A stretch of DNA of 64,000 nt from an uncultured Actinomycetes bacterium (GTDB taxonomy: Bacteria; Actinomycetota; UBA4738; HRBIN12), in the NCBI GenBank assembly GCA_963704725.1, contig OY969934.1:1889040-1953039 (forward strand), read 5' to 3'. The translations under genes were made by a program, and so were the position numbers. A model generated the notes under the pieces. That model saw only the letters and a program-made list of their open reading frames with translations. It did no database searches and was not told the DNA's origin. Position 1 is the first letter of the stretch. The number at the start of each line of letters is the position of its first letter. Shown here one piece after another: positions 4,932 to 63,926 of this stretch.

Positions 4932-6944
4932 GTGCCGCCCTTCGTGATCCGCGCCGACCACGTGCCCACCGGCGACCAGCCTCAGGCCATCGACCGCCTG
5001 GTCGAGGGTCTCCAGGCGGGCGAGCGCAACCTCACGCTGCTCGGGGCCACCGGGACCGGCAAGACCTTCACGATCGCCAACGTGGTCGAGCGCGTCCAGC
5101 GGCCGACGCTGGTGATGGCGCCCAACAAGTCGCTCGCGGCCCAGCTCGCCAACGAGTTCCGCGAGGTCTTCCCGGACAACGCCGTCGAGTACTTCGTGAG
5201 CTACTACGACTACTACCAGCCCGAGGCCTACGTCCCGCAGACCGACACCTACATCGAGAAGGACTCGTCGGTGAACGACGAGATCGAGCGGCTCCGGCAC
5301 TCGGCCACGGCCGCCCTGCTGACGCGGCGCGACGTCTTGATCGTCGCGAGCGTCTCCTGCATCTACGGCCTGGGCTCGCCGGAGGAGTACGAGGGGCAGA
5401 TGCTGCGGGTCCACAAGGGAGTGGCCACCGACCTCGAGTGGGCCAAGCAGCGCCTCGTCGACATCCAGTACAAGCGCAACCAGGCGGCCATGGCGCGAGG
5501 CCGGTTTCGGGTTCAGGGCGACGTGCTCGAGGTTCACCCCTCGTACGAGGAGACGGCCGTCCGCATCGAATGGTGGGGCGACGAGATCGAGCGCATCACC
5601 CGGTACGACCCGATCACGGGCGAGATCGTCGGCGATCTCAAGGAGATCACGGTGTTCCCCGCCACCCACTACGTGGCCTCGGACTGGCGGCTGAAGCGGG
5701 CCGTCGCGACGATCGAGGAGGAGCTGCAGGAGCGCCTGGCGTTGCTCGAAGGTCAGCAGAAGCTGCTGGAGGCGGAGAGGCTGCGCATGCGGACGCAGTA
5801 CGACCTCGAGATGCTCCGCGAGGTGGGGTTCTGCTCGGGGATCGAGAACTACTCCCGCCACCTCGACGGCCGGCAGCAGGGCGAGGCCCCGTACACGCTC
5901 CTGGACTACTTCCCCGACGACTGGCTCTGCGTGATCGACGAGTCGCACGTCACCGTGCCTCAGGTCCACGGGATGTACGAGGGGGACAAGACCCGCAAGG
6001 AGACGCTCGTCGAGTTCGGGTTCCGGCTGCCGTCGGCGCTCGACAACCGCCCGCTGCGGTTCGAGGAGTTCGCGAAGAAGGTCGGCCAGGTGGTCTACAT
6101 GTCGGCCACGCCCGGACCATACGAGCTCCGGGTCTCCCAGAGGATCGCCGAGCAGATCGTGCGTCCCACCGGTCTCGTCGACCCCGAGGTCCAGGTCCGG
6201 CCGACCAAGGGCCAGGTCGACGACCTCATCGAGGAGATCCGCAAGCGCGCCGAGGCGAGCCAGCGGGTCCTGGTCACGACGTTGACCAAGAAGATGGCCG
6301 AGGACCTCACCGACTACCTGCTCGAGATGGGGATCCGGGTCCGCTACCTGCACTCCGAGGTCGACACGATCCAGCGGATCGAGATCGTCCGCGACCTGCG
6401 GCTGGGTGAGTTCGACGTCCTGGTCGGGATCAACCTGCTCCGGGAGGGACTCGACCTGCCCGAGGTCTCGCTCGTCGCGATCCTGGACGCCGACAAGGAG
6501 GGGTTCCTGCGCTCGGACACGTCGCTGATCCAGACGATCGGGCGGGCGGCGCGCAACGTCGACGGCACGGTGATCATGTACGCCGACGAGGTGACGGACT
6601 CGATGAAGCAAGCGATCTCCGAGACCCAGCGGCGTCGCAAGATCCAGCTCGCGTACAACAAAGAGCACGGGATCGATCCCCAGACGATCCGCCGCAAGGT
6701 CTCGGACATCCTGCTCACGATGGCGGTCGACACGTCGAAGGCGCCCACACCCGACAGACGCCGCCGCAAGCGCGAACGTCCCGAGATGCCCACCGAGGAG
6801 CTCGAGCGCCTCATCCAGCAGCTCGAGGAGGAGATGCACGAGGCCGCCAAGGACCTCCGGTTCGAGTACGCCGCCCGGATCCGCGACGAGGTCGTCGACC
6901 TCCGCAAGGAGCTGAAGGCCCTCCGCGCCGCCGGGGTCGGGTAG
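4932..6944 (+). CDS. uvrB: Excinuclease ABC subunit B
   Basis: GTG start giving [27 protein letters not shown]. Walker [10 protein letters not shown], helicase motifs, and a C-terminal UvrB/UvrC interaction motif ([10 protein letters not shown]). The ORF-track 4440 start is an unlikely N-terminal extension. Confidence 0.9.
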
Positions 6945-35287: not shown

Positions 35288-38200
35288 ATGGTTTCGCTAC
35301 GTGTGTGCGCCCCGTGGTCCTCGTTCCGATCCCGTCCGATCTTCAGATCGCTCGGGCGTCTACGTGGGTCGATGATCTGTGGCCTCACGGTGGCTTCGCT
35401 CATTACCGTCGTGCTTCCAGTGCCCAGTGCAGTGGCGATCGCTCAGCAGGATGCCATCACCTACGTCTACGACGATCTGGGGAGACTCGAGGCCGTCGTC
35501 GATCCCGGCCAAACGAACGGCATCGCCCGCTACACGTATGACAGCGCCGGCAATCTCCTCTCGATCGCGAGGCAGAGCTCCACCGTCACCACGGTCCTGG
35601 ACTTCCAGCCGAAGACCACGACCCGCAGCTCCTCGGTCACCGTCTACGGGGCGGGGTTCAGCCCGACGGCGGGGCAGAACACCGTCCGGTTCGGTGGGCC
35701 GTCGGGCACCGCCGCGACGGTCGTCTCGGCGACAAAGACGCAGCTCCAGGTCACGGTGCCGGCCTCGGGCTCCGTCAACGGGACGGTCTTCGTCTCGAGC
35801 CCCGGCGGGAGCGCCACGAGCTCCCAGCAGTTCGCGCTCGACACGTCGACACCGCCGGCCATCACGGGGATCTCCGCCGCCGTCGCCACGATGGGATCGA
35901 CCGTCACCGTGACGGGCTCGGGCTTCGACCCTTCGGCACCGGCGATGAACAACGTCTTCCTGAACGGGATCAGGGCCCAGGTCACGGCGGCGACGGCGAC
36001 AACCCTCACCACCGTGGTGCCCCCGTTCCTCACGTCCGGACACGTCTCCGTCCAGACCCGCTGGGGCCAGGCGACCTCGATGAGCGACCTGTTCGTCCCG
36101 CCCGCCATCGACGGCGTGCCCTCCGCCGTCACCGATGTCGAGAGCACGGGACGCACGACCCTTGGTACGCCGACGGCGGTGAGCGTCACGACGCCGCAGA
36201 AGGTGGCCGTCCGGTCCTTCGACGGCACGCAGGGCGGCCGGGTCTTCATGGAGTTCTCGAGCCCGTCGGGGAACCAGGCCTGGCTGAGCCTGGTGGATCC
36301 GTTCGGCCGCGTGATGGGGAAGGACCTGATGACGACGGGCTTCCTGGAGCCCCGCACGCTGCCGGTGAGCGGGACCTACGAGGTCGTCGTCGACCCGATC
36401 GACACACAGACCGGCAACTTCACGTTCACCGCATTCGACGTCCCCGCCGACCTCTCGGGGACGATCACGCCCGACGGCGGACCGGTCGTGGCGAACATCA
36501 CCGCGAAGGGCCAGAACGCCGGCTACACCTTCACGGGCACGGCCAACCAACGCGTGTCCCTCCGGTTCAACGGTTCGGGGTGGACGGGGCTCTACTGGGT
36601 CCGCATCCTGCGGCCCGAGGGGATCGAGCTGACGAGCACGCTGAGCGTCTTCGGGTGGCAGGACCCGGTCACGCTGCCCGTCTCCGGCATCTACACGGTC
36701 GTGATCGACCCGATCGCTGGGGCCACCGGCTCCACGACTCTGACCGCCTACGACGTGCCGCCCGACAGCTCTGGGCCGATCCAGCCCAACGGCCCACCGG
36801 TGAACGTCACCGTCACGGCCGACAACGCGGGCCAGAACGCGAACCTGACCTTCGATTCGACCGTCAACCAGCAGGCGACGATCAACGTCACCGGCTCCAC
36901 GTTCCCGCAGGCCTACGCCCACCTCTACCTCGGGACCCCGCCGACGAACCCGATCTCGCTGAACCACCTGTTCCTCGGCGGGAACACCACGATCGGCCCC
37001 ATCTCCCTGTCCGCCGCGGGCAGCTACACCCTGGTGATCGACCCGATCGGCGGGTTCACGGGAAGCGCGAACATCGCGCTCACGCTGGCAGCGGGCCGTG
37101 CGACGCCGAGAGGGGGGCGGGGCGATCGCCTAAGGACGGACAGGCCGCCGTCCCCGCATTCACCGAGAGCAGCCACGGCGCTGGCCGGAGTCGTGCTCGG
37201 TCTGGACGGCTCGCCGCTCGCCGGCGTGAGCGTCGGCAGCGGAGACGTGGCAGGCGCGACCGACTCGAACGGCAGGTTCCGCCTTGCGGGCCTTCATGCC
37301 GGCCCGGGGGTCCTGGTCGTCGACGGGGCAAGCGCGTCGACCGAGGGCGCGAGCTACGGGCTGTTCCAGATCCAGGTCGAGCTCGAGCGCGGACGAACCA
37401 CGGAGCTCGGGTCCCCGGTGTGGATGCCGGAGCTCGACACGCGGCACGTCCGCCGCATCGCCAGCCCCACCCGGCGCGACGTCGTCCTTCGGACCCCGCT
37501 TGTTCCCGGGCTGCGGATCCAGATCCCGAAGGGGTCCTTGGTCAGGGATCTGGATGGTCGGGCGGTCCACGAGCTCTCGATCACGCCAGTTCCGATCGAC
37601 CGGCCACCGTTCCCGATGCCGGATGCGCCCGACTTCCCCATCTACTTCACCGTCCAGCCCGGTGGCGCCGCCGTCCTGCCCGAGGGTGCGCGGATCATCT
37701 ACCCGAATTCGGCGGCCCTGCCGGCCGGAACCGAGGTCCGGTACATGGACTACGAGCCCGCGGAGGACGGCTGGGAGTTCTACGGTCGTGGACGCGTCTC
37801 GCCCGATGGCATGCGGATCGTGCCCGATCCCGACACCCGGGTCCGTGCGTTCACCGGCTCCGCCTACCCGATCCCTCTCTACCTGTCGCCTCCGCTGGCA
37901 GATACGAACCCGCTCTCCGAGCTCGGCGAGCCCGTGGACCTGTCGACCGGGTTGTTCCACTACACGAAGACGGACCTCGCGCTGCCCGGCCCCATGCCGA
38001 TCCAGCTCACCCGGATCTACCGGCAAGGGGATCCGAACGCGGAGCCCTTCGGCCTCGGCATGACGTACAGCTACCAGTCCTATCTGAGCTGGGACTGGCC
38101 GTCCCCCGACAACCAGTGGAAGGACCTCATCCTTCCCGGCGGGGTCCGGGTGCACTTCGACCGGATCACCCCCGGGACCGACGTGGAGCACGCCGTCTAC

Positions 38201-41200
38201 GAGGCGACCGCTACACCGGGGCCGTTCTTCAAGTCCCGGATCAGCTGGGATCCGGTGCTGCGGTCCTGGCTCCTCACGCGGCGGGACGGCACGGTGATGG
38301 TCTTCGGGCTGGGGGGAAGCGGGAGCGCGTTGCGAGACGTGGCGGACCGGTACGGCAACCGCCTCGTGCTGATCGGGCCCGCCGGAACGAGTCCCCAGCC
38401 TGCCACGCAGATCGTCTCCTGGCCCTCGGGCAGGTGGATCAACCTGTCGATCTCGAACGGCCGGGTGACGCAGGCCACCGACGACCTGGGGCGGAGCGTC
38501 GGGTACGGCTACGACGGGCAGGGGCGCCTGGCGAGCGTGACCGACCCGAACCAGTTCGGCCAGCCCTCGCCGAAGTCGTCCATCTACGGCTGGGTCACCG
38601 ATCCCGACTGCACAAGTCCGGGATCCGTGCTCGCCACGATCACCGATCCCCGCAACATCACGTGGCTGTCGAACACCTACGGGCCCGGGTGCCGGGTTAC
38701 GCAGCAGACCGTCCCCACGGCGACGGGGACCGACGTCTACACGTTCGCGTACACGCCCTCGGGGCCCGGCGCCGTCACTCAGGCGGACATGACGGATCCC
38801 AACGGCAACGTGCACCGGGAGTCCTTCGACTCGACCGGCTACATGACGTCGGAGACCATCGCGCTGGGAACGCCGTCCGCGCGGACGTTCACGTACGAGC
38901 GGGACCCCACCAACCACCGCACCAGCGCCGTCGTCGATGCCTTCCACAACCGCAGGACCGAGTTCACGTACAACGCGTTCGGCCAGCCGACGTCCGTCAC
39001 CCGTCTTGCCGGCACCCCGCAGGCGGTCACCACGTCGTACACGTACGATCCGGTCTTCCGACAGCTGGAGACGATCACCGATCCACTCACCCACGTCACA
39101 CGCTTCGCGTACGACGCGGCGGGATGTCTCGACTCGGTCCAAGACCCGATGAGCCGGACGACCTTGTTCGACTGCAACGGTGCCGGTCAGATCACGCAGA
39201 TCACCGATCCGCTCACGCACGCGAGTGTGCTCTCCTACGCTCATGGAGACCTCACCTCAGCGACGGATCCGCTCGGTCGGACCACGTCTCGGTTCACCGA
39301 CGGCGGTGGGCGCGTCCTCGCGGTCACAGATCCGCTCAACCACCCGACGACCTACGCCTTCGACAAGCTGAACGAGCTCACCCAGGTCACCGATCCGATC
39401 GGCGGGCTCATCTCGTTCACCCTCGACGAAGACGGCAACCTCACCGAGGTGAACGACCAGCGCCGGGGATCGCCCAGCCGGACCGACCTCGTTTACAACA
39501 ACCTGAACCTGCCGAGCACTCGAACCGACCCACTCGGCCGTCAGGAGACGTTCACCTACGACGACCTCGGCAACCTGACGTTCTGGACCGACCGCAAGAA
39601 CCAGACGACGGAGTTCCGCTACGACGCACTCAACCAGCTGACGTTCGCGGGATACAAGCGGACGGCGGGGCCGGTTTACGAGTCCACGATCACCTACACG
39701 TGGGACGTCGGGAGCCGGCTGACGCAGATCGCGGACACGACAGCCAACGCCGGCACGATCACGCGGACCTACGATGACCTGGACCGGCTCACGAACGAGA
39801 CCTCGGTCAACGCTTCGGCCTCGGGGGTCACCTACACGTACAACCCCGATGACACCCGGGCGACGATGACCGTGCAGAACCAGACCCAGGTGCTCTACGG
39901 CTACAACCCGGCCGCCCAGCTCACGAGCCTCACCCAAGGCGGCCTGGTGGTCGGCCTGGACTACCTCGGCGACGGCAGGCTCCGCCAGGTCTCCCTCCCC
40001 TCCTCGCCGGTGCTCACGCAGACCTACGCGTACGACGCGGCGGGCGAGATCGCCTCGATCGCCTACCAACGCGGTACCGGCACCCCGGACGACCTCTCCT
40101 ACGGCTACGACCCGAGCGGGGCTCGGACCTCGGTCTTCGGCAGCTACGCCCGCACGGGGCTCCCCGCCGCCACGACGGCCACGGCCGTCTACAACGTCGC
40201 GAACCAGCTGACGTCGTGGAGCGGAGCCGCAGTGGCGAGCGACCTCAACGGCAACATGACGTCGCAGGCCGGGCTCACCTACGCGTACAACGCGCGCAAC
40301 CAGCTCACGAGCGTAAAGCAGAGCAAGACCACGCTCGGCGCCTTCGTCTACGACGGACTGGGCCGACGCGTGCGCCGCACGATCTCGTCCGCGGTCACGC
40401 GGCCCGTCTACGATGGGTGGAACGTGGTCCAGGAACGGAGCAGCGCGGGCTCGGTGACGGCGAACCTACTCGTGGGGCGCGGGCTGGATGACGTCTTCAC
40501 CCGGACCGAAACGGCCCAACGGGAGTTCTTGTCCGACGCTTTGGGCTCGACCGTCGCGCTTGCCGACACCTCCGGGGTGGTGCAGACCTCCTACACGTAC
40601 GAGCCGTTCGGCCGGACCACTGCCACCGGGGCGTCGAGTTCGAGCACTTACCAGTTCACGGGCAGGGAGAACGATTCGACGGGGACGCTCTCGCTCTACA
40701 ACCTGCGAGCCCGATACCTGTCGCCGACGTTGGCGAGGTTCATCAGCCAGGATCCGATAGGCCTCTCAAGCAGTGACGTCAACTTGTACGAGTACGCTGA
40801 TGACACGCCGACGGGCCGTATCGATCCGACCGGCCTCTTCAGCGTCTGGCCTCCAGTTGTTGGCCCAGACTTGAGCGTGCACGAGGTTGGCGGGGGCAAC
40901 CCAGCGGGTTGGGTTTGGGACAGCACAGTGGGAACCATCTCCCACCTGGATGACTGGTGGTCGATGGCACGGAAGGATTTTGAACGCCAATCCGAGTTCG
41001 TAAGGCGCGAAGGAGGGTGGATGGCCGATGACCTGTTCGGAGAGCACGGCATACTGACGTCGTTCGGTCAATGCTTGGTCGTCGGTTTGGACTACATGAT
41101 CCTCGCCACCAACGCGGGCCTGGACCCCGAGGATGCCGCTCTGTTCGGGCTAGTTGGCTGCGCGGTGGGGATGAACACTCCGCCGACGCCACCCATTACC

Positions 41201-41203
41201 TAG
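35288..41203 (+). CDS. Rhs/YD-repeat polymorphic toxin (1971 aa) with IPT/TIG-like domains, carboxypeptidase-regulatory-like domain, RHS core and a novel C-terminal domain
   Basis: Long signal-like N-terminus. N-terminal YD motif (YVYDDLGRLEAVVDPG ... YTYDSAGNLLSI). Several Ig-like/IPT segments (VTVYGAGFSPTAGQNTVRFGG). Dozens of YD repeats (e.g. YGYDGQGRLASVTDPN, FTYDDLGNLTFWTDRKNQ). RHS repeat-associated core (LYNLRARYLSPTLARFISQDPIGLSSSDVNLYEYADDTPTGRIDPTGL). It ends at 40837 and is followed by a 121-aa CT domain (40838..41200). Confidence 0.85.
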   Translation: MVSLRVCAPWSSFRSRPIFRSLGRLRGSMICGLTVASLITVVLPVPSAVAIAQQDAITYVYDDLGRLEAVVDPGQTNGIARYTYDSAGNLLSIARQSSTVTTVLDFQPKTTTRSSSVTVYGAGFSPTAGQNTVRFGGPSGTAATVVSATKTQLQVTVPASGSVNGTVFVSSPGGSATSSQQFALDTSTPPAITGISAAVATMGSTVTVTGSGFDPSAPAMNNVFLNGIRAQVTAATATTLTTVVPPFLTSGHVSVQTRWGQATSMSDLFVPPAIDGVPSAVTDVESTGRTTLGTPTAVSVTTPQKVAVRSFDGTQGGRVFMEFSSPSGNQAWLSLVDPFGRVMGKDLMTTGFLEPRTLPVSGTYEVVVDPIDTQTGNFTFTAFDVPADLSGTITPDGGPVVANITAKGQNAGYTFTGTANQRVSLRFNGSGWTGLYWVRILRPEGIELTSTLSVFGWQDPVTLPVSGIYTVVIDPIAGATGSTTLTAYDVPPDSSGPIQPNGPPVNVTVTADNAGQNANLTFDSTVNQQATINVTGSTFPQAYAHLYLGTPPTNPISLNHLFLGGNTTIGPISLSAAGSYTLVIDPIGGFTGSANIALTLAAGRATPRGGRGDRLRTDRPPSPHSPRAATALAGVVLGLDGSPLAGVSVGSGDVAGATDSNGRFRLAGLHAGPGVLVVDGASASTEGASYGLFQIQVELERGRTTELGSPVWMPELDTRHVRRIASPTRRDVVLRTPLVPGLRIQIPKGSLVRDLDGRAVHELSITPVPIDRPPFPMPDAPDFPIYFTVQPGGAAVLPEGARIIYPNSAALPAGTEVRYMDYEPAEDGWEFYGRGRVSPDGMRIVPDPDTRVRAFTGSAYPIPLYLSPPLADTNPLSELGEPVDLSTGLFHYTKTDLALPGPMPIQLTRIYRQGDPNAEPFGLGMTYSYQSYLSWDWPSPDNQWKDLILPGGVRVHFDRITPGTDVEHAVYEATATPGPFFKSRISWDPVLRSWLLTRRDGTVMVFGLGGSGSALRDVADRYGNRLVLIGPAGTSPQPATQIVSWPSGRWINLSISNGRVTQATDDLGRSVGYGYDGQGRLASVTDPNQFGQPSPKSSIYGWVTDPDCTSPGSVLATITDPRNITWLSNTYGPGCRVTQQTVPTATGTDVYTFAYTPSGPGAVTQADMTDPNGNVHRESFDSTGYMTSETIALGTPSARTFTYERDPTNHRTSAVVDAFHNRRTEFTYNAFGQPTSVTRLAGTPQAVTTSYTYDPVFRQLETITDPLTHVTRFAYDAAGCLDSVQDPMSRTTLFDCNGAGQITQITDPLTHASVLSYAHGDLTSATDPLGRTTSRFTDGGGRVLAVTDPLNHPTTYAFDKLNELTQVTDPIGGLISFTLDEDGNLTEVNDQRRGSPSRTDLVYNNLNLPSTRTDPLGRQETFTYDDLGNLTFWTDRKNQTTEFRYDALNQLTFAGYKRTAGPVYESTITYTWDVGSRLTQIADTTANAGTITRTYDDLDRLTNETSVNASASGVTYTYNPDDTRATMTVQNQTQVLYGYNPAAQLTSLTQGGLVVGLDYLGDGRLRQVSLPSSPVLTQTYAYDAAGEIASIAYQRGTGTPDDLSYGYDPSGARTSVFGSYARTGLPAATTATAVYNVANQLTSWSGAAVASDLNGNMTSQAGLTYAYNARNQLTSVKQSKTTLGAFVYDGLGRRVRRTISSAVTRPVYDGWNVVQERSSAGSVTANLLVGRGLDDVFTRTETAQREFLSDALGSTVALADTSGVVQTSYTYEPFGRTTATGASSSSTYQFTGRENDSTGTLSLYNLRARYLSPTLARFISQDPIGLSSSDVNLYEYADDTPTGRIDPTGLFSVWPPVVGPDLSVHEVGGGNPAGWVWDSTVGTISHLDDWWSMARKDFERQSEFVRREGGWMADDLFGEHGILTSFGQCLVVGLDYMILATNAGLDPEDAALFGLVGCAVGMNTPPTPPIT

Positions 41204-58877: not shown

Positions 58878-59579
58878 TCAGCGCACCCCGACCTCGTCGA
58901 GGTGGCGGAGGAGATCGGCGGGGTCCTCGTAGACCCGATAGGCGCCGGCGCGCTCGAGCTCCTCGCGCCCGTAGCCGCCGGACAGGACCCCGACCCCGAG
59001 GGCCCGGGCCCGCCGCGCCGCGAGCAGGTCCCAGATGCTGTCGCCCACCACCACGCACCGCTCGATGTCGACCCCCAGGGCCTTGGCGGCGGCCAGGAAC
59101 AGGTCGGGGTCGGGCTTGGCGCGCTCGACGAGGTCGCGCGTGATGACGGGGACGCCGTCCGGCACCCCCAGGCGCTCGATCGTGGGGCCGGCCGACTCGC
59201 GGTAGCCGCTCGTGGCGATGGCCCAGGGCGTGCCCGTCGCCGTGAGCGTCCGCAGGAGCTCGACCGCACCCGGCAGGGGCCGGATGTGCGGCGCGTGGCG
59301 CGCGTAGGCGTCGGCGTGGGCCCGGCGGAGCACGGCGGCGTCCTCCGGGGTGACGTCGCGGCCGGTCTCGCGCAGGAGGGCGTTGGCGAACAGCCCGCCG
59401 CTCATCCCGATCTTGCGGTGGATCCGCCACACCGAGAGCTCGATCCCGGCCTCCTCGAGCGCGTCCCGCCAGGCGAGCACGTGCTGGTACACGCTGTCGA
59501 CGAGCGTCCCGTCGAGGTCGAACAGGAAGGAGGTGGTGGCGTCCACGACGCCATCGTAGATGAGCGGCGCGAGGGACAT
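58878..59579 (-). CDS. HAD-superfamily hydrolase (beta-phosphoglucomutase-like subfamily IA)
   Basis: FLFDLDGTLVDS motif I, S/T motif II, and K ... GDSIWDLLAA motif III/IV. Confidence 0.75.
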   Translation of the reverse strand: MSLAPLIYDGVVDATTSFLFDLDGTLVDSVYQHVLAWRDALEEAGIELSVWRIHRKIGMSGGLFANALLRETGRDVTPEDAAVLRRAHADAYARHAPHIRPLPGAVELLRTLTATGTPWAIATSGYRESAGPTIERLGVPDGVPVITRDLVERAKPDPDLFLAAAKALGVDIERCVVVGDSIWDLLAARRARALGVGVLSGGYGREELERAGAYRVYEDPADLLRHLDEVGVR

Positions 59580-59600: not shown

Positions 59601-60011
59601 CTACTGGTACTGGACGGCGCAGTTGATGAAGGTGTCGTTCCCGCCGCCACCGATGCAGACATCCGCGCCGTTCCCGCCGCGGATCGTGTCGTCTCCATCC
59701 CCGCCGAGCATGCAGTCGTTGCCGCCCTGACCACGGATGGTGTCGGACCCGGCGCTGCCCAGGATCAGCTCGCTCTGCCCGGTGCCGCGGAAGTTACCCG
59801 AGCCGGCCACGATGCTCGTCAGGGTCAGGGCGCTGCACTGGGGCGGCGCGAACTCGCTCACCAGATTCGCGTGGCTGAGATCGTCGGCGTGGGTCAGGGG
59901 CACGAGATTCGCCGCGGTGAGGCCGAGGACCGCGATGCCGGCGAGGCCGAACGCCACGAGCACCCCGAGAAGGGAGACCCGTCGCACCCGCCGCCGCCGA
60001 CGCGGTCGCAT
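59601..60011 (-). CDS. Small secreted protein with Gly/Asp-rich calcium-binding-type repeats and a TAAN-type signal peptide
   Basis: ATG 60009-60011 overlaps the stop of the upstream peptidase gene. Basic N-terminus plus TM (MRPRRRRRVRRVSLLGVLVAFGLAGIAVLGLTAANLVPLTHADD). C-terminal GGxGxD repeats (GQGGNDCMLGGDGDDTIRGGNGADVCIGGGGNDTF). The 229-aa ORF-track entry over-extends. Confidence 0.6.
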   Translation of the reverse strand: MRPRRRRRVRRVSLLGVLVAFGLAGIAVLGLTAANLVPLTHADDLSHANLVSEFAPPQCSALTLTSIVAGSGNFRGTGQSELILGSAGSDTIRGQGGNDCMLGGDGDDTIRGGNGADVCIGGGGNDTFINCAVQYQ

Positions 60012-61618
60012 CACGAGTGGACCCCGTTCGAGACCAGGTACCGGTAGGTCACGCCGTCCTCCTCGACGGTGTAGGCGTGGAAGCCGGCGCCCTCCTCGTG
60101 CAGGACGACGTGGCCGTAGTGGTTGGCCAGGCGCAGGAGCGCGTCGAAGCTGTCCACCTGCACGCTCCGGTCGCTCGGGGCGAGGGCGCCCGCGTGGACC
60201 GGCACGAGGAACTGCCCGTAGCGGGTCTCGATGGCGGCCGCCTCTCCGCGGCGGGCCGAGAGCAGCCGGCGGAGGACGATGGCCAGCCACCCGAGGGCGG
60301 CGACCCCGAAGACGGCGAGCGATCCGACGCGGAGCGGGTCCATCCCGAGGTCGCGGCCGAGGATCGAGAAGGTCCGCGGCTCCTCGGTCTGGGTCTTGAC
60401 GAGCCCGGCCGTGTCGGGGTGGATGGGATCGGCTGCCGCCTCACCCGTGGACGAGACGCTGGTGGGTTCGAGCTGGAGCTGCAGCGGGTCGAGGAGGAAG
60501 CGGAGCTCCGGAGCGAAGGTCTCGGCGAGCGGGCGGCCCGCCAGGGTCCCCTCGACCCGGACGTCGGGGCGGACCGCCACCGTGTAGTGGTCGCGCTCGA
60601 CGCCCGTGAGATGCTCGAGCTTCGCCGTCATGGCCAGCAGTGCCTGAAGGTCGAGCTGGCCCTCGACGTGGACGCCGGCGCCCTGGAACGCCGTCGCCGG
60701 CGCGAGCTCGATCGTCCGCGTCCAGCCGTTCACGTCGGAGAGCTCGGCCACCATCCGCACCGTCCCCGAGGCGTCCACCGTGGCCGAGCTGTCGATCGCG
60801 TAGTCGAACGCCACCTGCAGCCGGCTCGTGAGGTGGAGGTACGCGGGGTCGCCGGTCTGGACCGCGCCGGCTCCGTAGGCGTCGTGGCCCTCGGACGCCA
60901 CGAGTCCCGTGTACGAGAAGGTCCCCTGCTGGTCGTAGGTCACGTCGTGCTTGGTCGTCACCGTCGGCGAGAGCGCGAACAGGAGGCCGCTCAGCGCGAG
61001 GGAGAGGATGGCGACGCCGGCGAAGGCCGGCACGAGCCCGGCCGGCACGATCATCCGGTGCGCCGTGGGGGCGGGGCCGGGGCCGTGGCCGTTGCCGGCC
61101 TGTAGGGCGGGGGCTTCTTCACGCGCCGCGGCGGCGCGCCGGGATCCGCGACGCATCCGGCGTCGGCCGCCGAAGACCGCGAGCCCGGCCAGGGAGACGA
61201 TCGCGCCGATGCCCCACGGGGTGCGGACCGCGCCGAGGCGCATCCCGAGGTCGGGCACGTGGAACGCCATCGATCCGAAGATCTCGGATGCCGCGGGGTG
61301 GTAGTCGTCCATCCAGCTGTTGTTGTCGCCCTTCACCACGAAGCGGTCGCCGTCGAGCGCCACGATCCGGTGCAGGACGACGTGGTGGATGTCCGGATTG
61401 CGGTAGGCGACGACGTCGCCCACGACGTACTCGGAGCTGGGGTAGACCACGGCCAGGTCGCCGCCGTGCAGGAGAGGCTCCATGCTCGTCCCCGTGGTGG
61501 TCACGTAGGACGCCCGCCCGCCGAGCTGCCGCGGAGCGAAGAAGTACCAGCTGACGATGAGGAGGGCCGCGCAGGCGCCGAGTGCGGCAGCCCGTGCGAC
61601 CCTCCTCCGCGTGCTCAT
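60011..61618 (-). CDS. SipW-type (S26B, Ser/His dyad) signal peptidase fused to a large C-terminal membrane/extracytoplasmic domain
   Basis: N-terminal TM. Catalytic block GTSMEPLLHGGDLAVV ... HHVVLHRIV ... VVKGDNNSWMDD. Second TM. About 390 extra residues with two further predicted TMs (AFAGVAILSLALSGLLFAL and VGSLAVFGVAALGWLAIVL) and a cytoplasmic tail of about 70 aa. Confidence 0.65.
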   Translation of the reverse strand: MSTRRRVARAAALGACAALLIVSWYFFAPRQLGGRASYVTTTGTSMEPLLHGGDLAVVYPSSEYVVGDVVAYRNPDIHHVVLHRIVALDGDRFVVKGDNNSWMDDYHPAASEIFGSMAFHVPDLGMRLGAVRTPWGIGAIVSLAGLAVFGGRRRMRRGSRRAAAAREEAPALQAGNGHGPGPAPTAHRMIVPAGLVPAFAGVAILSLALSGLLFALSPTVTTKHDVTYDQQGTFSYTGLVASEGHDAYGAGAVQTGDPAYLHLTSRLQVAFDYAIDSSATVDASGTVRMVAELSDVNGWTRTIELAPATAFQGAGVHVEGQLDLQALLAMTAKLEHLTGVERDHYTVAVRPDVRVEGTLAGRPLAETFAPELRFLLDPLQLQLEPTSVSSTGEAAADPIHPDTAGLVKTQTEEPRTFSILGRDLGMDPLRVGSLAVFGVAALGWLAIVLRRLLSARRGEAAAIETRYGQFLVPVHAGALAPSDRSVQVDSFDALLRLANHYGHVVLHEEGAGFHAYTVEEDGVTYRYLVSNGVHS

Positions 61619-61646
61619 TGCGTGCCTCCCGACACCGTCGACGTAA

Positions 61647-62021
61647 CTAGTCGGCGATGATGATCCGCAAGTTGTTGGCGCTGAGCACCGGCTCCCCGGT
61701 CACCGTGCAGACCACGGGCGCGGCCACCGGGCACGTGTACCAGGTGCCCCCGTCCACGACCTGGACCCGGATCGCCGACCCGGCGGTCACGGCCGGGGTG
61801 GCGGTGAAGGTGACCGTGTCCATCGTGCTCGGATCGGTTGCGTTCAGTCCGTAGTGCACGCCGCTGATCGCGTATCCGGAGATCACGGTCTCCCCGTCGC
61901 CGGCGTGGCTGTCCGCCGGCATCGTGTTGGCCGCGGTGAAGGCGTAGGTGCCGGCCACGATCGCCCCGGCGAGGATGAACACCGTGGCGAAGCGCCCCAT
62001 CTTCGAACCTCTGCTGCGCAT
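61647..62021 (-). CDS. Small secreted protein with a TAAN-type signal peptide (putative SipW substrate)
   Basis: 124 aa (or 117 aa from the second Met). Signal MGRFATVFILAGAIVAGTYAFTAANTMPADS. Mature part is Thr/Val-rich and beta-rich in character. Confidence 0.55.
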   Translation of the reverse strand: MRSRGSKMGRFATVFILAGAIVAGTYAFTAANTMPADSHAGDGETVISGYAISGVHYGLNATDPSTMDTVTFTATPAVTAGSAIRVQVVDGGTWYTCPVAAPVVCTVTGEPVLSANNLRIIIAD

Positions 62022-62327
62022 CCGACCGTCCTTTCGTCCGTCCGTCCGTCTGTGCGCCTACGTGGTTCATCGGCAGGTCGAGGTGCGGGCTTATCCCTAT
62101 CTTTCGGTAAACCCCGCACCTCGCTTGGGGGTCCCCCCATCGACGAACCGGGCGGTCGGACGTCCGGGCGACGCTGGAACGCGGTCGAACGGCGCGGTAC
62201 CCTCTTTCAGGTATGTGACAGCTCATCGGGCATGGCGGCGCCGTTTCGACGCGCTTGTGCAGGGAGCCGTCCACCGTGTCCATCCTTCGCTCCATCTCCT
62301 TCTCTCATCGACCGTTCGGGGCATCAC

Positions 62328-63926
<1,599 letters not shown>

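Follow-up and report, generated by a model that had tools for sequence, protein, structure and literature searches.

Biofilm fibres of Firmicutes (TasA, BsaA) and of archaea (Tafi, AbpA/AbpX) depend on dedicated peptidases of the SipW/Sec11 type and on the cognate substrates of these enzymes. At the junction of signal peptide and mature protein TapA reads ...|AFHDIE. The corresponding junction of TasA is ...TWA|AFNDIK, its mature start at A28 verified against 8AUR. In Bacillus subtilis mature TapA starts at A44, tapA and sipW overlap at stop and start (PMC10151520), and it is by donating a strand from its mature N-terminus that the minor protein nucleates the polymerisation of the major one (PMC10151520; PMC9674648). 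The sipW-bsaA-bsaB-bsaC locus of Clostridium perfringens specifies a TasA-family fibre locked by an Asn-Lys isopeptide (PMC11580942). DUF5305 and a dedicated signal peptidase I mark the donor-strand fibre loci of Tafi and AbpX, and processing of TafA needs TafD (PMC11821415; PMC12337348). The relevant passages of these two papers and of bioRxiv 10.64898/2026.01.04.697558 have calcium involved in AbpX assembly; those that mention, in passing, peptidase-DUF5305 fusions in bacteria contain no description of the neighbours of the fusions or of the motif considered below.

The 64-kb stretch of DNA analysed here (‘the window’) carries three adjacent genes, A, B and C, that probably constitute an uncharacterised three-gene secretion and fibre-assembly cassette. 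Their features are:

61647..62021, minus strand: gene A, predicted 124-aa secreted protein, founding member here of an unannotated family
61917..61943, minus strand: motif of A, A27-F-T-A-A-N32-T-M-P35, at the predicted junction of signal-peptide c-region and mature N-terminus
61872..61928, minus strand: N-terminal extension of A, N32..Y50 (NTMPADSHAGDGETVISGY), with the invariant G41 and G49
61650..61871, minus strand: core of A, residues 51-124, modelled as a six-stranded beta-sandwich, with conserved Cys C97 and C105
60011..61618, minus strand: gene B, 535 aa, predicted fusion of an ER/archaeal-type signal peptidase I and a DUF5305 module
61253..61534, minus strand: peptidase domain of B, residues about 29-122, with predicted catalytic Ser45 (GTSMEP) and His83 (LHR), then GDNN..D
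60344..60964, minus strand: modelled extracytoplasmic beta-sandwich of B, residues 219-425, between TM3 (195-215) and TM4 (426-456)
60029..60247, minus strand: modelled cytoplasmic alpha/beta C-terminal domain of B, residues 458-530
59601..60011, minus strand: gene C, predicted 136-aa secreted RTX-repeat protein
59898..59921, minus strand: motif of C, L31-T-A-A-N35-L-V-P38
59628..59786, minus strand: calcium-binding RTX nonapeptide repeats of C, residues about 76-128 (PF00353)

The genes and their products

The ATG of gene A at 62021 has an AGGA ribosome-binding site 10 nt upstream (the NCBI start is M8, giving 117 aa), and the start codon of C shares bases with the stop codon of B (TGATG). 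Locus L001, where A is 33% identical, and locus L085 have the three genes in the same A-B-C order, while the genes beyond differ from locus to locus in every locus compared. Many clades have A and B and no C, so C is dispensable. Rfam, promoter and terminator scans of 59-63 kb gave nothing credible, and a riboswitch was not found upstream of A.

The preliminary description had placed a SipW-class peptidase between two small secreted proteins, and gene B bears this out with 56.2 bits against TIGR02228, the NCBIfam model of archaeal/ER-type signal peptidase I (curated cutoff 51.85). Among 120 homologs S45 (GTSMEP), H83-R84 and D98/N100/D104 are each conserved to 90% or more, an arrangement of Ser/His, not Lys, and of the folds in the PDB that of human SEC11A (7p2p_A; E 9e-4, probability 1.00) matches best. 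Against PF17231 (DUF5305) the window's B gives 27.6 bits where the gathering score is 29; a precomputed PF17231 match is present on the identical database protein (P0019) and on most homologs. In the AF2 model (pLDDT 87.8) transmembrane segments at 195-215 and 426-456 bracket the beta-sandwich at 219-425, with alpha/beta following at 458-530, which agrees with DUF5305 as described in bioRxiv 10.64898/2026.01.04.697558. By sequence and model, then, B is a Sec11/SipW-type signal peptidase I fused to a DUF5305 module, with predicted activity.

Protein A has at least 220 homologs, all ‘hypothetical’ and none with a Pfam domain, and several loci have multiple A paralogs. In its AF2 model residues 51-124 form six strands at pLDDT >90 and residues 25-50 are coil at pLDDT 55-72, the value over the extension N32..Y50 being about 70: a beta-sandwich with an N-terminal extension unstructured in the monomer, as is characteristic of subunits in donor-strand fibre systems, and the same pattern as in the published monomer predictions for AbpX. 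Comparison of the core fold gave only generic Ig/FN3-like matches, with no TasA-like fold among them, and neither sequence nor fold similarity of A to TasA, AbpA or Tafi subunits was detected. At about 75 residues the core is far smaller than known subunits of the donor-strand fibre class (substrate size in the cassette is about 95 residues), and the extension is Gly-rich (AGDGxG), unlike a classic amphipathic strand.

Protein C belongs to the RTX family by its score of 49.4 bits against PF00353 (gathering score 23). The RTX repeats are conserved in 14 C-type orthologs, and four conserved Cys are spread across the mature protein. When full-length C was compared with a library of 1.84 billion representatives, the best 150 matches were all giant RTX proteins of 1,700-7,700 aa, which says nothing about the C family itself. 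The n-region of C is very Arg-rich, without a clear twin-arginine consensus.

The junction motif and its association with the peptidase

That TAAN is common to both small secreted proteins beside the peptidase had been noticed earlier, and both sequences are indeed in the window: ...AGAIVAGTYAFTAANTMPADSHAGDG in the N-terminal region of A (61647..62021, minus strand) and ...GIAVLGLTAANLVPLTHADD in that of C (59601..60011, minus strand). When the full 64 kb were searched for TA[AS]N in six frames, exactly two matches came up, at 61926-61937 and 59907-59918, and these are the copies directly after the N-terminal hydrophobic stretch in A and C, the proteins flanking the peptidase gene. The hydrophobic core followed by TAANxxP that was described at the outset holds, but the acidic segment said to trail it is no general trait, most orthologs having NTVPA(S/T)KAGDG, and a better rendering of the conserved core is A-(F/L)-T-A-(A/S/T/G)-N-(T)-(V)-(P). 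The window's RHS protein has an ordinary signal, ...PSAVA|IAQQ. Three familiar kinds of signal can be set aside: the type IV pilin or class III signal, with the motif after and not before the hydrophobic stretch; the lipobox, there being no Cys; and the N-glycosylation sequon, N-T-V not being N-x-S/T.

Two findings had been named in advance as telling against a system-specific motif, namely its absence from orthologs and its being common in unrelated signal peptides. Retention was found throughout, in 131 A relatives and 14 C-type partners. In the A-family alignment (131 members, mean column identity 23%) position -5 is A in 128, -4 F in 120, -3 T in 123 and -2 A in 130; -1 takes only small residues (S/A/T/G), -3 is limited to T/A/S, and these two restrictions make the pattern expected for a signal peptidase I site. 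The Asn at +1, N32 of the window's A, is N in 131/131, and the family's other invariants are G41, G49 and Y57. No stretch of the family is conserved as strongly as A-F-T-A-x-N, and nowhere in the alignment is the information content higher than in the motif. The C-type partners, aligned from 14 loci, keep tA.N.Vp with the Asn invariant, and the motif spans two phyla, Actinomycetota and Chloroflexota.

As to unrelated signal peptides, none elsewhere in the window has the motif in any frame, and in the other loci and in metagenomes it is linked to the peptidase. Across 80 peptidase loci the motif in signal-peptide context adjoins the peptidase gene, and an open reading frame matching the A HMM adjoins B in 71/71 genome loci with upstream sequence (69 counted by script, with L028 and L064 judged adjacent from ORF coordinates). 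On long contigs every A-family match has B immediately downstream. An unbiased metagenome scan for the motif codons gave 80 DNA matches, most of them out-of-frame or internal chance matches; those in signal-peptide context were A-family in 11/11 cases, with the peptidase adjacent in all seven that had downstream sequence. Across these loci, contigs and metagenome matches the motif in signal-peptide context is specific to this peptidase system. Retention in orthologs and this specificity support the earlier proposal that it is the cognate recognition sequence of the flanking peptidase, from which we infer recognition and cleavage by B.

The likeness of A and C does not end with the motif, the common region running about 10 residues past the Asn (consensus NTVPATKAGD). 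Within a locus the two extensions have more residues in common, derived ones included, than between loci (p about 5e-5 and 0.0015), a modest effect for which gene conversion could partly account. The motif is only the beginning of a longer N-terminal module that A and C share, and this module probably has an assembly role as well, as in TasA/TapA.

What the cassette might do

The reading that we favour, and think rather likely, likens the cassette to tapA-sipW-tasA: a dedicated peptidase, the cognate junction at which it cuts, and an N-terminal assembly module common to the two substrates. A-B-C would be a self-contained three-gene cassette with A and C as dedicated substrates of B. Both would be exported by way of an N-terminal signal peptide whose c-region and junction carry A-(F/L)-T-A-(small)-N, and membrane-embedded B would recognise this junction and cut inside it. 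Where would the scissile bond lie? The -3/-1 rule allows three candidates, A|FTAxN, AFT|AxN and TAx|N, with TAx|N the most compatible across both protein families, so that mature A and C may start at or just before the invariant Asn. Each mature protein would then bear the shared extension, about 12-18 residues long with the consensus NTVPATKAGD..., which in A comes ahead of the small beta-sandwich and which could be an assembly element of the donor-strand type. In the putative polymerisation A would be the major subunit and C an accessory one (nucleator, tip or anchor) docking onto A by the same extension, roles that would mirror those of TapA and TasA around SipW. Cleavage by B, the bond that it cuts and polymerisation are all, it should be stressed, what we infer.

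Might TAAN instead be a by-product of common ancestry, of gene conversion or of lineage-typical signal-peptide composition in a high-GC, Ala/Thr-rich genome, with no specific function? Ala and Thr are abundant in high-GC proteomes, and composition leads one to estimate about 2-3 TAAN by chance in 128,000 six-frame residues; however, the two matches occupy equivalent sites in the proteins on either side of the peptidase, all 131 A-family sequences have the Asn despite so low a mean column identity, two phyla have the motif, and neither the loci nor the metagenome scan yielded one in signal-peptide context away from B. We give this explanation next to no chance: Asn invariance, motif statistics, the metagenome scan and the 71-locus linkage effectively refute it. 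It also seems quite improbable that the junction serves assembly or interaction alone, as a donor strand or docking peptide, with a housekeeping signal peptidase doing the cutting and B being, e.g., a scaffold or release protease. Such a role would suit conservation and A/C similarity that reach about 10 residues past any plausible peptidase subsite, an invariant Asn and a G41/G49 pattern that look structural, and the precedent of TasA, TapA and AbpX, whose conserved N-terminal residues are donor-strand residues (PMC10151520; bioRxiv 10.64898/2026.01.04.697558). It sits badly with where conservation peaks, positions -5 to -1, which lie before at least one candidate bond, in the signal peptide, and follow the small-residue pattern of sites for signal peptidase I. 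It also sits badly with a B that keeps its complete conserved catalytic set and is genetically inseparable from A, and with the related dedicated peptidase TafD being experimentally required for processing of its pilin (PMC11821415).

Processing of A and C by B need not imply a fibre. The two could be monomeric or heterodimeric secreted or cell-surface proteins, e.g. a Ca2+-dependent adhesin pair, with B only controlling release from the membrane. We judge this unlikely: in the sections of the literature that bear on it every characterised system of signal peptidase I with DUF5305, or of SipW, makes donor-strand fibres, the multiple A paralogs of several loci are as in major/minor pilin sets, and the N-terminal extension is unstructured in the A monomer model. 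Yet the absence of a fold match of A to any known fibre subunit, the tiny A core, the Gly-rich extension, and the complete RTX beta-roll and disulfides of C are what such an adhesin pair would lead one to expect. To return to the favoured peptidase-and-module scheme, a bolder version of it is conceivable, which we offer tentatively and would not wager on. Actinomycetota and Chloroflexota would have a minimal surface fibre of a kind not seen before, with A (core about 75 residues) as its subunit, built by the single fused Sec11-like/DUF5305 membrane enzyme without chaperone, usher or sortase, and with AFTAxN cleavage mechanistically coupled to strand donation. The invariant Asn, placed at the new N-terminus or beside it, would be needed beyond recognition, for the register of the donor segment or for a chemical step distinct from the Asn-Lys isopeptide lock, and C would make initiation Ca2+-dependent.

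Relation to described systems

With the RTX (HemolysinCabind) proteins of type I secretion C has in common bona fide nonapeptide repeats; it differs in being just 136 aa long, with four conserved Cys and an N-terminal signal peptide bearing the cassette motif, and in having a signal peptidase, not a T1SS ABC/MFP pair, for its neighbour. BsaA is a SipW-dependent subunit whose N-terminal donor segment has an Asn (N35) essential to its function (PMC11580942), but no Lys or Glu/Asp partner is conserved in the A family and the mature A of the window has zero lysines, so an N-E-K isopeptide lock of the BsaA kind is not supported.

The B. subtilis tapA-sipW-tasA operon is alike in its order of substrate, peptidase, substrate, in its ER/archaeal-type (Ser/His) peptidase, in the short sequence across the cleavage site, here a putative one, that is common to both substrates and in a stop/start overlap of neighbours, here B and C. 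The sequences at the junction are different, AFTAxN-TVP as against xA|AF(N/H)D, and the A-family alignment has no conserved acidic residue two positions after the aromatic one, as an AFND-type mature N-terminus (x-aromatic-x-acidic) would have. The TasA core is about 230 aa and that of A about 75 aa, TapA has an Ig-fold where the partner here is an RTX beta-roll, and SipW lacks the DUF5305 module that B carries fused. Neither A nor C matched the TIGR04088 SipW-cognate signal models, the TasA NCBIfam model or the camelysin/TasA Pfam families, and for neither of them did any NCBIfam model score above threshold; with the TasA model one of 36 relatives gave E=0.08, and hhalign against TasA gave a probability of 0.6%.

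A full-text literature search for the motif strings found no paper, and no description was found of such fibres in the groups of Actinomycetota named below or in Chloroflexota. Archaeal Tafi (TafA/C/E/F with the TafD peptidase and TafG, DUF5305) and AbpX resemble the present system in the pairing of a dedicated signal peptidase I, of TIGR02228 type, and a DUF5305 accessory and in several small secreted beta-sandwich proteins with N-terminal extensions. They differ in that peptidase and DUF5305 are here one polypeptide, in there being only 2-3 genes, without regulator or membrane-anchor genes, in the Sec-type substrates being much smaller and not detectably DUF1102- or TasA-like, and in the hosts being Actinomycetota and Chloroflexota. 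Being very small, with a single chain for peptidase and accessory, the cassette lends itself to studying how such peptidases select substrates and what DUF5305 does, and its two unannotated substrate families come with a crisp signature, A-F-T-A-x-N-T-V-P, that could be converted to an HMM for genome annotation. The logic of dedicated peptidase and cognate substrate, familiar from the fibres of Firmicutes and archaea, would with this cassette be carried to soil and groundwater Actinomycetota (Blastococcus, Arthrobacter, Conexibacter, Baekduia, Acidimicrobiia, Gaiellales) and to Chloroflexota.

A compact cassette around an ER-type signal peptidase

The secreted protein A, the SipW/Sec11-type peptidase B and the RTX-repeat protein C are encoded by genes packed tightly on the minus strand of the window (GC ~70%), with TGATG as the overlap of the B stop with the C start and a ribosome-binding site, GGGAGG, ahead of B.

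61647..62021, minus strand: gene A, 124 aa
60011..61618, minus strand: gene B, 535 aa
59601..60011, minus strand: gene C, 136 aa
59979..60011, minus strand: n-region of C
58878..59579, minus strand: HAD-type hydrolase gene, starting 21 nt past C
62260..63926, plus strand: ABC-F type ATPase ORF, divergent, upstream of A
35288..41203, plus strand: RHS ORF, 1971 aa (RHS repeats, DUF6531, IPT/TIG domain)

Scanning of the cassette region found no Rfam element, clear promoter or terminator. Neither the hydrolase nor the ATPase neighbor is kept in the other loci compared. The distant RHS ORF resembles an RHS polymorphic toxin and lies where GC is lower (0.64-0.67) and the GC skew, near 38-40 kb, is strongly negative.

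B scores above the curated TIGR02228 cutoff for archaeal/ER-type signal peptidase I (56.2 versus 51.85 bits) and also matches Peptidase_S24/S26. Its C-terminal DUF5305 scores 27.6 bits where the gathering score is 29, with an identical database entry having a precomputed PF17231 match. Ser45 (GTSMEP), His83-Arg84 and the GDNN..D block each show 90% conservation or more across 120 homologs. In the AF2 model (pLDDT 87.8) TM1 is followed by the peptidase beta-domain and TM2, then by an Arg-rich disordered loop leading to TM3; a large beta-sandwich (residues 219-425) separates TM3 from TM4, after which comes an alpha/beta domain on the cytoplasmic side. Among PDB structures the model best matches SEC11A from the human signal peptidase complex (7p2p_A, E 9e-4, probability 1.00); second-best is the uncharacterised Archaeoglobus fulgidus Af_0446 (3but, E 9.5e-4, probability 1.00).

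C carries RTX calcium-binding repeats (PF00353, 49.4 bits) and four Cys. C-type n-regions are extremely Arg-rich (the window's C, L006, L011, L065, L085 and L087, L-numbers being homologous loci or metagenome contigs compared with the window); that of the window's C has 8 Arg among its first 11 residues, and others show RR-x-hydrophobic patterns. Tafi subunits of haloarchaea travel by the Tat pathway, and C may do likewise.

In the AF2 model of A (131 sequences, pLDDT 81.7) a helical signal peptide leads into coil (residues 25-50, pLDDT 55-72) and then a six-stranded beta-sandwich with the conserved Cys pair (residues 51-124, pLDDT >90). A Foldseek search of the PDB with this model returned generic Ig/FN3-like domains only, none of them below E=0.4; subunits of TasA, AbpA, thread or Tafi type were not among the matches. 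Nor did A match Pfam, NCBIfam or PDB sequences.

A junction conserved in A and linked to B

A (MRSRGSKMGRFATVFILAGAIVAGTYAFTAANTMPADSHAGDG) and C (MRPRRRRRVRRVSLLGVLVAFGLAGIAVLGLTAANLVPLTHADD) have, after their N-terminal hydrophobic stretch, a junction of the type A-(F/L)-T-A-(small)-N-(T)-(V)-(P). The preliminary description had seen TAAN after the hydrophobic core of both proteins, and a six-frame scan for TA[AS]N bears this out, giving exactly 2 matches in the window, the A and C sites. As 2-3 TAAN tetrapeptides are expected by chance per ~128,000 six-frame residues (an estimate from amino-acid composition), the number is unremarkable; what is remarkable is the placement, with both copies ending the signal-peptide hydrophobic core of the peptidase gene's two neighbors.

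Searched as a single query against 5.8 billion proteins, A detects only 18 relatives, which retain ...GTYAFTAANTVPA.KAGDG... with invariant F28, A30, N32, G41, G43, G49 and Y50. Profile search extends the family to at least 220 proteins, all 'hypothetical' and none with a Pfam domain. L001 has an identical A-B-C order, an A 33% identical to the window's and a C reading ...ISAMAASNAVPQTG. Across 131 A-family sequences mean column identity is 23%; only N32, G41, G49 and Y57 are invariant, with conservation of 90% or more at A27, F28, T29, A30, G43, F72, C97, C105 and V120. The Asn is preceded by a median of 26 residues (n-region and h-region together) and followed by ~103. The counts below make the junction the best-conserved part of the entire protein.

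Residues around the Asn (+1) in 131 A-family sequences
-7: T/A/G
-5: A 128
-4: F 120, Y 10
-3: T 123
-2: A 130
-1: S 67, A 26, T 22, G 16
+1: N 131
+2: T 100
+3: V 91
+4: P 95

The Asn is invariant only within this main family, since a divergent A-like subclass upstream of some B genes (L010, L020, L021, L026, L056, L070, L083; AAYTNSISG..., AAFTTAIASF...) keeps A-(F/Y)-T and has N-S-I-S-G... or T-A-I-A-S-F-P... in place of A-x-N-T-V-P; of the two parts, A-(F/Y)-T may be the determinant that holds more universally. A Dehalococcoidia C-type protein (L033, 2300..2794; ...VVQAAASTVPATKMG) has the TVP segment and lacks the otherwise invariant Asn. Between A and B of L087, a truncated 65-aa A-like ORF (5365..5562; ..AFSASNTVPSASLGQGANAISPY..) may be a decaying paralog; the same locus encodes a second, complete A paralog as well as a C-like protein whose RTX repeats are degenerate.

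B is much more widespread than A, its full-length homologs numbering at least 233. When one genome was scanned for each species, 80 loci emerged, from Actinomycetota (Blastococcus, Arthrobacter/Pseudarthrobacter, Terrabacter, Kineococcus, Marmoricola, Conexibacter/Baekduia/Solirubrobacteraceae, Acidimicrobiia, Gaiellaceae, Nitriliruptoraceae) and Chloroflexota (Anaerolineales, Dehalococcoidia, Tepidiformaceae, Thermomicrobiales). ORFs with the motif behind a signal-peptide-like stretch sit immediately upstream of B in 78 cases and downstream of it in 23; the only 8 matches not adjoining B appear to be noise. With the A-family HMM, an A-type ORF abuts B in 71/71 loci having at least 450 nt upstream (69 scored by script, 2 with the match inside a longer stop-to-stop ORF ending at B). 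Conversely, every A-family protein on a long contig from the profile search has an S24/DUF5305 gene immediately downstream, and genes beyond the cassette are unrelated between loci.

An unbiased search of metagenome contigs for T-A-[A/S]-N-T-V-P codons (80 loci) gave 11 matches in frame behind a signal-peptide-like stretch: 11/11 are A-family, and B is present in 7/7 of those having downstream sequence. The remaining matches are out-of-frame or internal, by chance, and no other passenger type carried the motif. A recurrent short frame, '*W TA. NTVPNR(I/M)TSSTAAN...', in many unrelated contigs matched by the DNA pattern (L090, L093, L095, L105, L106, L112, L137, L139, L142, L158, L159, L161, L165) probably reflects a conserved gene read in another frame, unrelated to the cassette.

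The preliminary description proposed a cognate recognition sequence, an idea that absence of the motif from orthologs, or its commonness in unrelated signal peptides, would refute. Neither occurs: the Asn stands in 131/131 A-family sequences, the motif is linked to B in all these scans, and the window's RHS protein has an ordinary signal (...PSAVA|IAQQ, AxA type).

Cleavage, co-variation and the role of the junction

The -3/-1 small-residue rule is satisfied in 131/131 A-family sequences by three bonds, A|FTAxN, AFT|AxN and TAx|N. C-type residues at -5/-4 vary (G-L, A-M, V-V...), and in three C-type loci, as we read the sequences, A|FTAxN is disfavored by a Val that would occupy -1. TAx|N suits all C-type proteins except one, which makes it the candidate that applies most widely. 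A non-significant hhalign alignment of A with TasA (probability 0.6%) pairs N32 with TasA N30 (AFND), which would equate to AFT|AAN.

The region common to A and C extends beyond a cleavage site. The consensus following the Asn is TVPATKAGDGSG in A and TVPATKAGDSSR in C, and A and C share 4.5 identities in +1..+10 within a locus versus 3.4 across loci (permutation p ~5e-5; for +4..+10 alone, p ~1e-4). Common residues differing from both family consensuses number 13 versus 6.5 expected (p = 0.0015).

Co-varying segments of A and C
L065: A PDAALGQG; C PPTNIGQF
L067: A PASNAGDG; C PASNLGED
L077: A PGTEAG; C PGGTVS
L087: four motif proteins, three LGQG, the C-like one IGQF
This window: A PADSHAGD; C PL-THADD; one-residue offset

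The invariance of -5..+1 suggests a partner that is itself invariant, for which B's conserved active-site region is the simplest candidate; the variability of the co-varying part suggests a co-evolving partner, the simplest being a binding site on A itself. Part of the resemblance may come from gene conversion between the 5' ends of A and C.

We think it probable that B is the dedicated peptidase of A and C. B would recognize the A-(F/L)-T-A-small-N junction in both, leaving mature proteins with a common N-terminal extension serving assembly; A would be the major subunit and C a Ca2+-binding accessory confined to the 'AGDG' subclade. Dedicated processing of A and C that do not polymerise, with which the PDB search with A would agree, seems unlikely. 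Somewhat less likely again is a motif that is solely an assembly element, with cutting by a housekeeping peptidase, which accommodates the resemblance of A and C past the Asn and leaves the constant adjacency of B. A similarity without function, or one typical of the lineage, as the chance-level TAAN count might allow, is effectively refuted by the conservation of the motif and its linkage to B.

Relation to known fiber systems

The SipW substrates TasA and TapA have ...A|AF(N/H)DI in common at their cleavage sites, and the mature start of TasA, A28, was confirmed against 8AUR. The likeness to SipW/TasA in the preliminary description holds for logic: as in tapA-sipW-tasA, two substrates, here putative, flank the peptidase and have common sequence across the cleavage site. 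When membership was tested, A and C fell outside the TasA/camelysin and SipW-cognate signal families. TasA polymerisation is started by a strand donated from the TapA mature N-terminus (PMC10151520, PMC9674648). In Clostridium perfringens BsaA an N-terminal Asn bonds Lys in an intermolecular isopeptide (PMC11580942); mature A lacks Lys altogether, and neither Lys nor Glu is conserved in the family, so such a role for the invariant Asn is not supported.

Through its DUF5305, B recalls the Tafi and AbpX systems of archaea. In the parts consulted of PMC11821415, PMC12337348 and bioRxiv 10.64898/2026.01.04.697558, a TIGR02228 peptidase (TafD) and a DUF5305 protein (TafG) accompany donor-strand fiber subunits, TafA processing is shown to need TafD, Ca2+ is needed for AbpX assembly, and peptidase-DUF5305 fusions in some bacteria are mentioned in passing, with no description there of fusion neighbors or motif. 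Motif strings are absent from the literature searched by full text. As far as the literature and family libraries were searched, the motif is undescribed, as are the two substrate families, the minimal cassette with its fusion and the phyla that host it; the principle, a dedicated ER-type peptidase with its cognate junction, is already established.
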